Program-made: the position numbers and the translations under genes | IMG/VR virus record: IMGVR_UViG_2541047682_000003 | DNA from: a virus | Lineage: Duplodnaviria; Heunggongvirae; Uroviricota; Caudoviricetes | Strand: one strand, 5' to 3' | DNA: 24,435 bases | Shown: piece after piece, positions 1 through 5,197 of the stretch | How the letters are laid out: every line of letters begins with the position of its first letter | Numbering within the stretch: position 1 is the stretch's first letter | The notes under the pieces: model-generated | The model's database searches: none | Seen by the model: only the letters and a program-made list of their open reading frames with translations | Told to the model about the DNA's origin: nothing

Positions 1-1143
1 CTATGCTGTTTTGATATCTACGATAATCCAGTCTTTACCACGATCATCATTGTATCGGTCGGTCATTTTTCTGGATTTATGGCCTAACAACTTTTGCGTA
101 TCCAGACCCTGTTCCCGATATAACCGTTCTGACAGAGATCGCTGCTCATGAAATGTGGGCGCAGTTCCTTGCTCCCATTTTATGCCACATTTTTCCCGGG
201 CCTTTTTAAAAGCCGTTGTCAGAGTATTCGCAGAAACCTGGTCTCCTCTGTTTGCTTGAGAGGTAGTGTGACGGTAATGGACCAGATATTTACTAACAAC
301 AGCATCCCTGCACTGAGATATAACTTCACGAAGGGTAATATTCAGAGCATCGCATTTCAGGTTAAGCGGAATAGCAAGTTTTGAACCGGTTTTTTCCTGA
401 GTAATGTGCAACATGTCGTCCCATATATCAGAGAATTTCAAATTGCAGATATCGCCTAAACGTTGTCCAGTAACAAGAGCAAGTAGCATGCCGCATTTTA
501 AATAGGGCTGCCGTCTGCTTACGCTGTCAAATATTGCCTGCCATTCGGGCAGTGACAATCTTTGGCGGTTTACTCGATTTCGTGGTTGTTTTGTTGCCTG
601 CGCTGGGTTAAATCCTGGCGGAACATGTCCTGCGTGTTGTGCTTCTTTGAAGACGTCGATCAACACCATTCTCACGACTTGCGCCATCCTGTTATGACCT
701 TCAGCCTTTACAGCATCAATTATTTCGGCAATATCAAGTGCGGTAATATCCTTGAGGTGTTGCATTCCACAATGCTCACGGAAAAGACGAATGGGTTTGC
801 CTTTTTGCCGATAGGAGTTGGGTCTTAGTTCATTATGTTGCAGCCTGTCCTCTTGGATAGAAATATATTTATCAAGCCATTCTGTCACCGTAATGTCTGA
901 GCGCCTGCCTTTCATTCTTTCCAGACGCTCATTGACGCTTAATATTTGTCTGGTACGTTGTTCAGCAATAATGGTATTTGCTTCAGTAGCAACTTGTTTT
1001 GCTTCATTCTCATCAGTTCCTAAGCTATGAAAACGACCGGATAGTGGATGTTTGTATTGCCAATATACCTTTCCGGTTCGCTTATCTAATTTGCAATATA
1101 AATTGGGTATAGAGATTTTGTGAGATCGGGGTCTAGCAGCCAT
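1..1143 (-). CDS. int: Phage tyrosine integrase (lambda Int family), complete
   Basis: 380-aa ORF with ATG at 1143-1141 and TAG at 3-1. C-terminal region (TFHEQRSLSERLY...LLGHKS...DRY) resembles the lambda Int catalytic domain. Overlaps the upstream xis by 11 nt as in lambda. Not identical to lambda Int, so a different att specificity is expected. Confidence 0.93.
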   Translation of the reverse strand: MAARPRSHKISIPNLYCKLDKRTGKVYWQYKHPLSGRFHSLGTDENEAKQVATEANTIIAEQRTRQILSVNERLERMKGRRSDITVTEWLDKYISIQEDRLQHNELRPNSYRQKGKPIRLFREHCGMQHLKDITALDIAEIIDAVKAEGHNRMAQVVRMVLIDVFKEAQHAGHVPPGFNPAQATKQPRNRVNRQRLSLPEWQAIFDSVSRRQPYLKCGMLLALVTGQRLGDICNLKFSDIWDDMLHITQEKTGSKLAIPLNLKCDALNITLREVISQCRDAVVSKYLVHYRHTTSQANRGDQVSANTLTTAFKKAREKCGIKWEQGTAPTFHEQRSLSERLYREQGLDTQKLLGHKSRKMTDRYNDDRGKDWIIVDIKTA

Positions 1144-1369
1144 CAGCGATTATCCTTTGGAGTTTTGGGTTTGCGTTTATTGGGAGTTGCGGTTCTGCAA
1201 GCGTTCCTACAAAACGGGAATTTCGGTCAATCATCCAGTAGCGACCAACTTTTATAGCGGGTGGGGCCATCATTTTCCCTTGCGCGTATTTTTTCAGAAC
1301 TCGCTCACTTGGTGCTAAGTCCCCAAATTCTTCTTTAGCCCAGTCCTGTAAAGTGATTAGTCGAGACAT
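1133..1369 (-). CDS. xis: Excisionase-like protein (Xis)
   Basis: 78-aa ORF immediately upstream of and overlapping int; strong RBS (GAGGAGG) before ATG at 1369. Position and size are typical of lambdoid excisionases; sequence is not lambda Xis. Confidence 0.7.
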   Translation of the reverse strand: MSRLITLQDWAKEEFGDLAPSERVLKKYAQGKMMAPPAIKVGRYWMIDRNSRFVGTLAEPQLPINANPKLQRIIADGC

Positions 1370-1508
1370 TTGTCCTCCTCTTAGCTGCTGAGGGAGTTTG
1401 TGACCGATATATCTGACATGATATTAAGCTCATGGCAGGTACATCTCTTGACTGGTCATAGAGATAAATTTAATGCTGAGAAATGCAGTATTGAATTTAT
1501 CAATTTTT

Positions 1509-1748
1509 CTATTTCCTGCGCATGTCACGTAACTTCTTAATGTGTTCTGCCGTTTCGATCTCTTCTGCTATCCGATCTGCATCAGCTTTATTCACAGGTT
1601 CAAAGTCATGATTAAAGCGGAACATGCTGGCGATACATGTTCTGCCTTTTCGGATGTAGTGAACTTTGTTGTGGGTAGAACGCAGGATTTTGCAGGGAGT
1701 GCCGTGGTGGTCGACGTACCAGGTGTTAGGGTCAATCACTCTGAACAT
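1509..1748 (-). CDS. Hypothetical small protein (exo-xis accessory region)
   Basis: 79-aa ORF, same strand as neighbours, 17-nt overlap with the upstream gene. No family recognised. Confidence 0.45.
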   Translation of the reverse strand: MFRVIDPNTWYVDHHGTPCKILRSTHNKVHYIRKGRTCIASMFRFNHDFEPVNKADADRIAEEIETAEHIKKLRDMRRK

Positions 1749-2061
1749 TCTTGACCTTGTGTTGTGCGGATTGATATTCAGTGCTGATATTCACCTTTAT
1801 AGCGAACACCTTTACCGGTTTATCGCCAAAGTGCGGATGTGTGATTGTCTTCACTTCATATCCGTCATACGGAACATCAATTCTGCGACTGGAATCGTCG
1901 CGCTTCGGATATCCCTTTGTGATAATCAGGCGGTCATATTCCCGGAACATAATTCGCTTATTCCAGTAGTCATTACACAAGCGATACTCTTCCGTTTTCT
2001 CTCCGCGAATCATGGCATCGAAGTATTCACTTTTAACAGCAAGTTGCAGGTTAGCCATCAC
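1732..2061 (-). CDS. ASCH-like (PUA-fold) domain protein
   Basis: 109-aa ORF containing GEKTEEYR, which matches the ASCH signature GxKxxExR. Its stop overlaps the start of the next gene. Confidence 0.5.
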   Translation of the reverse strand: MMANLQLAVKSEYFDAMIRGEKTEEYRLCNDYWNKRIMFREYDRLIITKGYPKRDDSSRRIDVPYDGYEVKTITHPHFGDKPVKVFAIKVNISTEYQSAQHKVKNVQSD

Positions 2062-2279
2062 TTAATCCCCCTTTGTTTGCGGATAAGCTCCAGATCTTGC
2101 TGGCAACTGGCGCAAGTCCGACAACCCTGAACGGCCAGGCGTCTTCGTTCATCTATCGGATCGCCACACTCACAACAATGAGTGGCAGATACAGCCAGGT
2201 AGTTCAGGCGGCGCATTTTTATTGCTGTGTTGCGCTGTAATTCTTCTATTTCTGATGCTGAATCAATGATGTCTGCCAT
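2058..2279 (-). CDS. TraR/DksA-family C4 zinc-finger protein (lambda Orf73-like)
   Basis: 73-aa ORF with CxxC...CxxC (CCECGDPIDERR...CRTCASCQ), the hallmark of TraR/DksA-type proteins. Lies in the same exo-xis position as lambda orf73. Confidence 0.8.
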   Translation of the reverse strand: MADIIDSASEIEELQRNTAIKMRRLNYLAVSATHCCECGDPIDERRRLAVQGCRTCASCQQDLELIRKQRGIK

Positions 2280-2329
2280 CTTTCATTAATCCCTGAACTG
2301 TTGGTTAATACGCTTGAGGGTGAATGCGA

Positions 2330-2356
2330 ACAATAAAAAAGGAGCCTGTAGCTCCC
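2330..2356 (-). terminator. Putative intrinsic terminator (minus strand)
   Basis: Hairpin GGAGC-CTGTA-GCTCC (2341-2355) followed on the minus strand by TTTTTTATT. Confidence 0.4.
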
Positions 2357-2472
2357 TGATAATTTTGCTTTTCATGTTCATCGTTCCTTAAAGACGCCGT
2401 TTAACATGCCGATTGCCAGGCTTAAATGAGTCGGTGTGAATCCCTTCAGCGTTACCGTTTCGCGGTGCTTCT

Positions 2473-2655
2473 TCAGTACGCTACGGCAAATGTCATTGAC
2501 GTTTTTGGAAACTGCTGTCTGACTTTTTTGATTTCAGAATTAGCCTGACGGGCAATGCTGCGAAGGGCGTTTTCTTGCTGAGGTGTCACTGAACAAGCCC
2601 CATGTCGGCAAGCATAAGCACACAGAATATGAAGCCCGCTGCCAGAAAAATGCAT
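2473..2655 (-). CDS. Small exo-xis region protein (lambda orf61 position)
   Basis: 60-aa ORF in the conserved order orf60a-orf63-orf61 downstream of exo. Confidence 0.45.
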   Translation of the reverse strand: MHFSGSGLHILCAYACRHGACSVTPQQENALRSIARQANSEIKKVRQQFPKTSMTFAVAY

Positions 2656-2665
2656 TCAGTGGTTG

Positions 2666-2857
2666 TCATACCTGGTCTCTCTCATCTGCTTCTGCTTTCG
2701 CCACCATCATTTCCAGCTTTTGTGAAAGGGATGTGGCTAACGTATGAAATTCTTCGTCTGTTTCTGCTGGTATTGGCACAAACCTGACTCCAATTTGAGC
2801 AAGGCTATGTGCCAAATCAATACTCGTTCTTAACTCAACAGGAGATGCTTTGTGCAT
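2666..2857 (-). CDS. Small exo-xis region protein (lambda orf63-like)
   Basis: 63-aa ORF; size and position match lambda orf63. Confidence 0.5.
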   Translation of the reverse strand: MHKASPVELRTSIDLAHSLAQIGVRFVPIPAETDEEFHTLATSLSQKLEMMVAKAEADERDQV

Positions 2858-3018
2858 ACCGCCCCCCGTTTATTATTTATCTCCTCAGCCAGCCGCTGGG
2901 CTTTCAGCGGATTTCGGATAACAGAAAGACCGTGAAATACCCAGCCTCGCTTTGTAACGGAGTAGACGAAAGTGATCGCGCCTACCCGGATATTATCGTG
3001 AGGATGGGTCATCGCCAT
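2830..3018 (-). CDS. Small exo-xis region protein (lambda orf60a-like)
   Basis: 62-aa ORF (60 aa from the second Met) overlapping the 3' end of exo, as orf60a does in lambda. Confidence 0.55.
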
Positions 3019-3689
3019 TGCTCTCCAAATACAAAACCAATTTCAGCCAGTGCTTCGTCCATTTTTTCGATGAACTCCGGCACCATCTCGTCAAAACTCG
3101 CCATGTACTTTTCATCCCGTTCAACCACGACATAATGCAGGCCTTCACGCTTCATTCGTGGGTCATAGTTGGCAAAGTACCAGGCATCTTTTCGTGTCAC
3201 CCACATGCTGTACTGCACCTGGGCCATGTAAGCCGACTTTATGGCCTCGAAACCACCGAGCCGGAACTTCATGAAATCCCGGGAGGTAAACGGGCATTTC
3301 AGCTCAAGGCCATTGCCGTCACTGCATAAACCATCGGGAGAGCAGGCGGTGCGCATACTTTCGTCGCGATAGATGATCGGGGATTCAGTAACATTCACGC
3401 CGGAAGTGAATTCAAACAGGGTTCTGGCGTCGTTCTCGTACTGTTTTCCCCACGCCAGCGCCTTAGCATTAACTTCCGGAGCCACACCGGTGCAAACCTC
3501 AGCCAGCAGGGTGTGGAAGTAGGACATTTTCATGTCAGGCCACTTCTTTCCTGAGCGGGGCTTTGCTATCACGTTGTGAACTTCTGAAGCGGTGATGACG
3601 CCGAGCCGTAATTTGTGCCATGCATCATCCCCCTGTTCGACAGCTCTCACGTCGATCCCGGTACGCTGCAGGATAATGTCCGGTGTCAT
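3009..3689 (-). CDS. exo: Lambda exonuclease (Red-alpha)
   Basis: 226-aa ORF that matches lambda Exo almost residue for residue as recalled ([36 protein letters not shown]...). 4-nt overlap with bet. Confidence 0.97.
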
Positions 3690-4471
3690 GCTGCCACCTT
3701 CTGCTCAGTGGCTTTCTGTTTCAGGAATCCAAGAGCTTTCACTGCTTCGGCCTGTGTCAGTTCTGACGATGCGCGAATGTCGCGGCGAAATATCTGGGAA
3801 CAGAGCGGCAATAAGTCGTCATCCCATGTTTTGTCCAGGGCAATCAGCAGAGTGTTAATCTCCTGCATGGTTTCATCGTTAACCGGAGTGATGTCGCGTT
3901 CCGGCTGACGTTCTGCAGTGTATGCGGTATTTTCGACAATGCGCTCGGCTTCATCCTTGTCATAGATACCAGCAAATCCGAAGGCCAGACGGGCACACTG
4001 AATCATGGCTTTATGCCGTAACATCCGTTTGGGATGCGACTGCCACGGCCCCGTGATTTCTCTGCCTTCGCGGGTTTTGAATGGTTCGCGGCGGCATTCA
4101 TCCATCCACTCGGTAACGCAGATCGGATGATTGCGGTCTTTGCGGTAAATCCGGCATGTACATGATTCATTGTCCTGCTCAAAGTCCATACCATCAAACT
4201 GCTGGTTTTCATTGATGATGCGGGACCAGCCATCAACGCCCACCACCGGAACAATGCCGTTCTGCTTATCAGGGAAGGCGTAAATTTCTTTCGTCCACGG
4301 ATTAAGGCCGTACTGGTTGGCGACGATCAACAATGCGATGAACTGCGCATCGCTGGCATCACCTTTAAATGCCGTCTGGCGAAGAGTGGTGATCAGTTCC
4401 TGTGGGTCGACAGAATCCATGCCGACACGTTCAGCCAGCTTCCCTGCCAGCGTTGCGAGTGCTGTACTCAT
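3686..4471 (-). CDS. bet: Red-beta single-strand annealing protein
   Basis: 261-aa ORF matching lambda Bet as recalled ([37 protein letters not shown]...). Confidence 0.97.
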
Positions 4472-4476
4472 CCGTT

Positions 4477-4773
4477 TTATACCTCTGAATCAATATCAGC
4501 CTGATGGTGAGCAATGGTTTCAACTATGTACCGGATGTGTTCTGCCATGCGCTCCTGAAACTCAACATCGTCATCAAACGCACGGGTAATGGCTTTTTTG
4601 CTGGCCCCGTGGCGTTGTAAATGATCGATGCATAGCGATTCAAACAGGTGCTGGGGCAGGCCTTTTTCCATGTCGTCTGCCAGTTCTGCCTCTTTCTCTT
4701 CACGGGCGATCTGCTGGTAGTGACGCGCCCAGCTCTGAGCCTCAAGACGATCCTGAATGTAATAAGCGTTCAT
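4477..4773 (-). CDS. gam: Gam (short form GamS), RecBCD inhibitor
   Basis: 98-aa ORF starting [21 protein letters not shown]..., corresponding to lambda GamS. The upstream ATG at 4894 ([14 protein letters not shown]...) is out of frame (see findings). Confidence 0.93.
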
Positions 4774-4848
4774 GGCTGAACTCCTGAAAATGGCTGTGAA
4801 AATATCGCCCGCGAAATGCCAGGCTGATTAGGAAAACAGGAAAGGGGG

Positions 4849-4992
4849 TTAGTGAATGCTTTTGCTTGATCTCAGTTTCAGTATTAATATCCATTTTTTA
4901 TAAGCGTCGACGGCCTCACGAAACATCTTTTCATCGCCAATAAAAGTGGCGATAGTGAATTTAGTCTGGATAGCCATAATTGTTTGATCCAT
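4849..4992 (-). CDS. kil: Kil (host-killing/FtsZ inhibitor peptide)
   Basis: 47 codons from ATG at 4992 ([47 protein letters not shown]). Overlaps the gam upstream region and the cIII 3' end as in lambda. Confidence 0.8.
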
Positions 4993-5125
4993 TTTTTGGG
5001 ACTCCTGGCTGATTAAGTATGTCGATAAGGCGTTTCCATCCGTCACGTAATTTACGGGTGATTCGTTCAAGTAAAGATTCGGAAGGGCAGCCAGCAACAG
5101 GCCACCCTGCAATGGCATATTGCAT
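4961..5125 (-). CDS. cIII: CIII (FtsH/HflB protease inhibitor)
   Basis: Hand-translated 54 codons from ATG at 5125: [54 protein letters not shown], then TAA at 4963-4961. Below the ORF-track length cutoff. Confidence 0.85.
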   Translation of the reverse strand: MQYAIAGWPVAGCPSESLLERITRKLRDGWKRLIDILNQPGVPKNGSNNYGYPD

Positions 5126-5197
5126 GGTGTGCTCCTTATTTATACATAACGAAAAACGCCTCGAGTGAAGCGTAATTGGTATGCGGTAACGCCGCGC

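Follow-up and report, generated by a model that had tools for sequence, protein, structure and literature searches.

The one-base difference from lambda at the kil-gam junction of an IMG/VR phage record is a natural allele common among lambda-like phages

The gam gene of the virus record IMGVR_UViG_2541047682_000003, of which the whole analyzed stretch of 24,435 nucleotides is hereafter called the window, differs in length from lambda by a single base in the short region between kil and the conserved gam start codon. This difference does not stem from an error but represents a natural allele that is common in lambda-like phages. The description of the locus in which we have high confidence is that of an ordinary, widespread kil-gam junction allele, where Gam would be translated only from the ATG at 4773, the region between kil and that ATG would be an untranslated leader, and the 50-codon open reading frame (ORF) opened by an upstream ATG is most likely not usefully expressed.

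The locus belongs to a set of lambda-type leftward early genes on the minus strand (cIII, kil, gam and bet). As in other lambdoid recombination modules, gam is placed directly upstream of bet (3686-4471, minus strand; ORF list and Pfam) and downstream of kil and cIII, and the gene order bet-gam-kil in the window is that of lambda and 933W. The GamS form of gam, a member of the RecBCD-inhibitor family, occupies 4477-4773 on the minus strand (98 codons plus stop; ORF list, Pfam PF06064), has an intact ORF and begins with the ATG at 4773-4771, preceded at a distance of 7 nt by the Shine-Dalgarno sequence AGGAG (4781-4785, minus strand; context cacagccattttcAGGAGttcagccATG). kil is found at 4849-4992 on the same strand (47 codons plus stop; Pfam PF06301 Lambda_Kil, E=3.1e-19), and between its stop codon and the GamS start lies a 75-nt leader (4774-4848, minus strand), which is the GamL-specific part not shared with kil. 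A second ATG at 4894-4892 is located inside kil in a different frame and opens the 50-codon ORF (4742-4894, minus strand; ORF list), the first 24 residues of which are the N-terminus of lambda GamL; kil overlaps the start of this ORF by 46 nt, and its stop is found 32 nt beyond the GamS ATG. The sequence-only reading of the window had placed ATG 4894 at 121 nt from the GamS ATG and out of frame with it, and all coordinates were confirmed, the two frames differing by +1. This frame relation was read straight from the sequence, and no chance model is applicable to it. Further upstream, the Rfam element Lambda_thermo (RF01804), a cIII thermoregulator, was detected over its full model at 5080-5138 on the minus strand (88.5 bits), an expected feature of the cIII leader.

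When aligned to lambda (NC_001416) over 500 nt, the window showed one length difference only, reading AGCCATTTTCAGG where lambda reads AGCTA-TTTCAGG. The T-run at 4787-4790 is TTTT in the window and TTT in lambda, and the substitution adjoining the indel is found at 4792 (C in the window, T in lambda), giving a polymorphic site (4787-4792, minus strand) with the sequence CATTTT in the window, as delineated by alignment with lambda, Stx2-86, ev017 and 06-3462, as opposed to TATTT in lambda. The extra T sets the frame relation of the upstream ATG to GamS: in lambda the spacing is 120 nt and the upstream ATG is in frame, resulting in a 138-codon ORF, whereas in the window the spacing is 121 nt, so that the upstream ATG is out of frame and its ORF stops after 50 codons. 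The window thus has neither an in-frame ATG 40 codons upstream of GamS nor a single 138-codon ORF, which together characterize the lambda GamL isoform. The earlier assignment of the shift to the run at 4787-4790 agrees with the alignment, and the statement that kil is unaffected also holds, as the kil stop codon (4849-4851) precedes the indel and the Kil protein of 47 aa is recognized by the Lambda_Kil profile. In the CATTTT allele, kil and GamS share one reading frame, with only two TAA stops between them (4774-4851, minus strand).

Among previously described systems, lambda gam (NC_001416, 32816-33232; GamL 138 aa, GamS 98 aa) has the same kil-gam-bet arrangement as the window, and likewise possesses an internal ATG led by AGGAG and an upstream ATG inside kil. 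Lambda GamS is approximately 95% identical to the window protein, an identity estimated from 5 differing residues out of 98 in the alignment. On the basis of this similarity, the window protein would be expected to bind and inhibit RecBCD as a DNA mimic; the structure of the lambda GamS-RecBCD complex has been solved (PMC5218532). GamL and GamS are regarded as two isoforms of lambda Gam, 'presumably' arising from two start sites, and quinolone resistance was lowered by both when expressed from plasmids (PMC5218532; PMC11610958). The prior description of GamS as 'the' active inhibitor was for this reason slightly too strong, both forms being active from plasmids (PMC5218532). Among the papers listed in a literature search, none was found that states explicitly from which start Gam is made in vivo or that comments on the frame difference of Stx phages.

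The CATTTT site, the 121-nt spacing and the 50-codon ORF were all found in 933W (AF125520), BP-4795, Stx2-86, 06-3462 and ev017; the corresponding features are TATTT, 120 nt and 138 codons in lambda and in one O157:H7 prophage. Comparison with lambda gam and other lambdoid gam genes had been proposed as a way to see if the single-base difference recurs, which it does (933W, BP-4795, Stx2-86). As in the window, 933W, BP-4795, Stx2-86 and ev017 have a 98-aa gam, and gam of the Shiga-toxin phages and ev017 differs from the window by a few point substitutions only, with ev017 being 100% identical over the 484 nt compared. This 484-nt stretch is 100% identical in four records of three phages (ev017, PhiR57_1 and PhiR63_2) and 98–99% identical in many Shiga-toxin phages, and PhiR63_2 matches the whole window at 100% identity over 89% of the window length. 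Of 5,426 complete E. coli genomes, 3,116 contain the region; among the complete E. coli replicon records, 1,423 carry an exact 69-mer of the window allele and 746 the corresponding exact 68-mer of the lambda allele. In a phage collection rich in lambda laboratory derivatives, the window allele was present in 79 and the lambda allele in 81 of 180 records. Lambda-type gam was also encountered at 96% identity in genome assemblies of unrelated organisms (Shewanella, Pseudomonas, Kitasatospora, Neobacillus, Leeuwenhoekiella and others), some on contigs of approximately 48.4–48.5 kb and several with low coverage, which looks like contamination with lambda control DNA.

The sequence-only reading had left two alternatives for the one-base difference, a homopolymer error or a natural variant making only GamS and a short upstream peptide. 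According to the former, the true sequence would have three T and a continuous 138-codon gam, and the difference does fall in a short homopolymer, a typical place for a miscall. The run is however merely four bases long, a linked substitution stands beside the indel (C vs T at 4792), and the 484-nt stretch is matched perfectly by the four independent phage records. Nor is the variant private to this assembly, since the same allele occurs in 933W (AF125520), BP-4795, the 1,423 complete E. coli records and the 79 phage records. The presence of the same allele across many independently sequenced phages and prophages led us to reject a sequencing artifact, the probability of which we regard as negligible. 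The second alternative, a natural GamS-only variant, was supported, although not its framing as an odd departure from a 138-codon norm, as the split or GamS-only arrangement proved to be the commoner one (see below).

The arrangement of ORFs was compared in IMG/VR loci gathered by a leader DNA pattern and by Gam peptide motifs, yielding 109 distinct haplotypes of 557 nt; the proportions are approximate, as they derive from the matches listed and one of the samples was chosen by a pattern inside the leader. Among the matches listed, the 138-codon ORF was intact in 25/109 haplotypes, the 50-codon arrangement of the window was found in 23/109, an upstream ORF shortened to 21 or 80 codons in 4/109, and no upstream ATG at all in 57/109. 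The split or GamS-only arrangement is the commoner state and the only one encountered in distant homologs, and the continuous 138-codon ORF of lambda is the minority state. In the 57 haplotypes without the ATG among the matches listed, a different gene replaces kil up to the kil stop codon; this gene has 68 codons and is labelled in RefSeq as a phage-encoded cell division inhibitor (for example locus L237, positions 166-372, and loci L048, L022 and L026). The stop codon is the exact point at which homology between the kil-replaced loci and the window sets in (..AATCACTAA.. vs ..ATTCACTAA..), and at this mosaic junction the last sense codon, CAC, is common to both modules. Prophages of this type (E. 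coli SK1144, NZ_AP018784) share the leader, the CATTTT allele and the 98-aa gam with the window, and as the homology ends exactly at the kil stop codon, there is no GamL-type ATG in them. The CATTTT allele was found in 52 of the 57 haplotypes lacking the upstream ATG among the matches listed, and is therefore not tied to the two-ORF arrangement (52/109 listed haplotypes have the allele without any upstream ORF).

Where the upstream ATG was still present in the lambda-allele group, the 138-codon ORF was intact in 25/28 haplotypes among the matches listed. The continuous GamL ORF occurs only where a kil module supplying the ATG is combined with a T-run one base shorter than that of the window, and the available sequences indicate that only some members of the lambda group have it. 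Among relatives, the T-run has 3 or 4 T and a C-run just 3' of the kil stop has 4, 5 or 6 C, and these changes in homopolymer length in the leader yield the 138-, 50-, 21- and 171-codon arrangements. The last of these are rare Kil-Gam fusion ORFs of 171 residues (P0002, P0009 and P0010), matched in Pfam by both Lambda_Kil and Gam, which arise through loss of the kil stop (TAA to TAC in P0009) or an upstream frame change, together with a lambda-type T-run. Such repeated length changes reshuffling the frames are the pattern expected of non-coding sequence.

More distant homologs similarly point to the 98-residue unit. The window GamS matched the Pfam family PF06064 Gam with E=1.4e-63 and 211.7 bits (cut-off 25), residues 1–98 aligning to 98/98 profile positions; this full-length match above the curated cut-off places the protein in the Gam host-nuclease inhibitor family. 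In lambda Gam, the same profile aligns to residues 41–138 and leaves the extension out. The window protein is 99% identical to a cluster of 98-aa proteins with 1,844 member sequences, and a protein search with GamS retrieved homologs of 72 to 99% identity that were almost all 97–99 aa long, with 138-aa forms found only among sequences approximately 96–97% identical to the window GamS. In RefSeq, a prophage that has the lambda allele and an intact 138-codon ORF is nevertheless annotated with the 98-aa protein. As start codons in databases are picked by gene callers, distant loci were also inspected at the DNA level, using eight loci with a confirmed ATG start and 57–75% protein identity, from Citrobacter, Klebsiella, Raoultella, Yokenella, Pseudescherichia and Escherichia sp. 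An in-frame upstream ATG was found in 0/8 of these loci, and the only in-frame start codon of any kind ahead of the Gam ATG was a GTG, seen in one locus at a distance of two codons. The motif (T)TCAGGAG stands right before the Gam ATG in 6/8 loci; two have the variant TTTTAGGAG or TTTCAGGAA, and Raoultella lignicola (locus L148) has TGAGG instead. The N-terminal extension is thus not conserved across the family, being present in 0/8 distant loci and 25/109 of the close haplotypes listed and lying outside the Pfam profile. The distant leaders were not alignable base for base, and the length of the T-run in them gave no guide to the ancestral allele. Two additional loci, from E. coli ECMA0423 and Shigella flexneri SFBU1023 (L141 and L142), encode a gam homolog with 81% identity that lacks an ATG where the start is expected; CAG stands at the aligned position and the only alternative is a GTG eight codons upstream, and the gene could be a degenerate remnant within a cryptic prophage.

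Regarding the choice of start codon, the context of ATG 4894 (cgacgcttataaaaaATG, with cgacgcttataaaaa ahead of the ATG) contains no purine-rich ribosome-binding site. We infer that ribosomes would in vivo initiate at ATG 4773 via its own AGGAG site, producing the 98-residue GamS as the conserved RecBCD-inhibitor unit, and that the 75 nt from the kil stop to the GamS ATG would remain untranslated, as a leader of the leftward early mRNA. The ORF opened by ATG 4894, which has no ribosome-binding site, would most likely give no useful amount of product. A weak hairpin resembling a terminator may be present in the leader, for which a consensus scan identified GCCTGGCATTTCGCGGGC followed by GATATTTTCA (4797-4824, minus strand; hairpin 4824-4807). 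This hairpin with its T-rich tail falls inside the would-be GamL coding sequence, and one stem position, at a CCNGG site, varies greatly among relatives, where it can be C, T, A or G. In stability the fold of the leader does not exceed those of shuffled sequences (z=-0.89), and a search of the leader against Rfam gave no family match. The tL2 terminator cluster of lambda presumably maps to this leader area; no such feature was found in annotated lambda records, and a literature search gave unrelated matches only. Nucleotide diversity in the leader was 0.027, between those of the first (0.018) and third (0.036) codon positions of GamS, values that we do not rely on as the sample was chosen by a pattern fixing approximately half of the leader and included duplicate lambda contaminants.

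With a sequencing artifact set aside, two further readings give the 50-codon ORF a role in the natural allele. A programmed +1 frameshift at CAU UUU C could join it to the GamS frame and produce a GamL-like protein at low level, and if tRNA-Phe slipped from UUU onto UUC at 4787-4790, the lambda GamL sequence would be restored except for one Y-to-H change; the frame past the second TAA is also open for 19 codons up to the GamS ATG. In known +1 frameshift sites, such as that of prfB, a stimulator lies upstream, the P-site codon is slippery, and the codon after it is either a stop or decoded slowly. The UUU C sequence could slip, but the next zero-frame codon is CAG, neither a stop nor rare, no Shine-Dalgarno-like stimulator is found just upstream of the slip site, and the upstream ATG has no ribosome-binding site. 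Furthermore, the two ORFs are not kept together wherever the shift site occurs, with CATTTT present in the absence of any upstream ORF in the 52/109 haplotypes among the matches listed, and some kil-module variants shorten the upstream ORF to 21 codons. We consider such frameshifting highly improbable; if true, frameshifting and not alternative initiation would determine how much long Gam is made relative to short Gam.

Alternatively, the 50-codon ORF could be a functional small gene or a regulatory upstream ORF, which, by being translated over the ribosome-binding site of GamS, would adjust how much GamS is made. Among the matches listed, 23 distinct haplotypes have the ORF intact; it extends 32 nt past the GamS start, and it carries the label 'gam alternate' in one public record (Stx2-86). 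Its intactness weighs little as evidence, as the carriers are approximately 98–100% identical, and the first 15 codons are in any case constrained by kil. The ORF furthermore has neither a ribosome-binding site nor a Pfam match, is absent from the 57 kil-less haplotypes among the matches listed, and is shortened or fused in others. A function of this kind finds no support in the comparisons and is very unlikely, and the 50-codon ORF is probably not a functional gene. Since the 138-codon ORF is usually intact in the lambda-allele group and GamL has been published as an active isoform, the GamL extension may have some value in lambda, and its loss in the window allele could affect phenotype.

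Public annotation of the locus varies, most records listing the 98-aa gam only, and Stx2-86 and 06-3462 also listing the 50-codon ORF. The window allele is already in public records, where it is annotated as a 98-aa gam, making the finding an ordinary one with small significance for discovery. Where the frame departs from that of lambda by one base at this site, there is no reason to flag an assembly error or a pseudogene, and GamS is supported as the reference form for annotation, recombineering and cell-free work. Conservation does not extend to the 138-residue 'full-length Gam' of lambda, and natural phages mostly encode the 98-residue unit alone.
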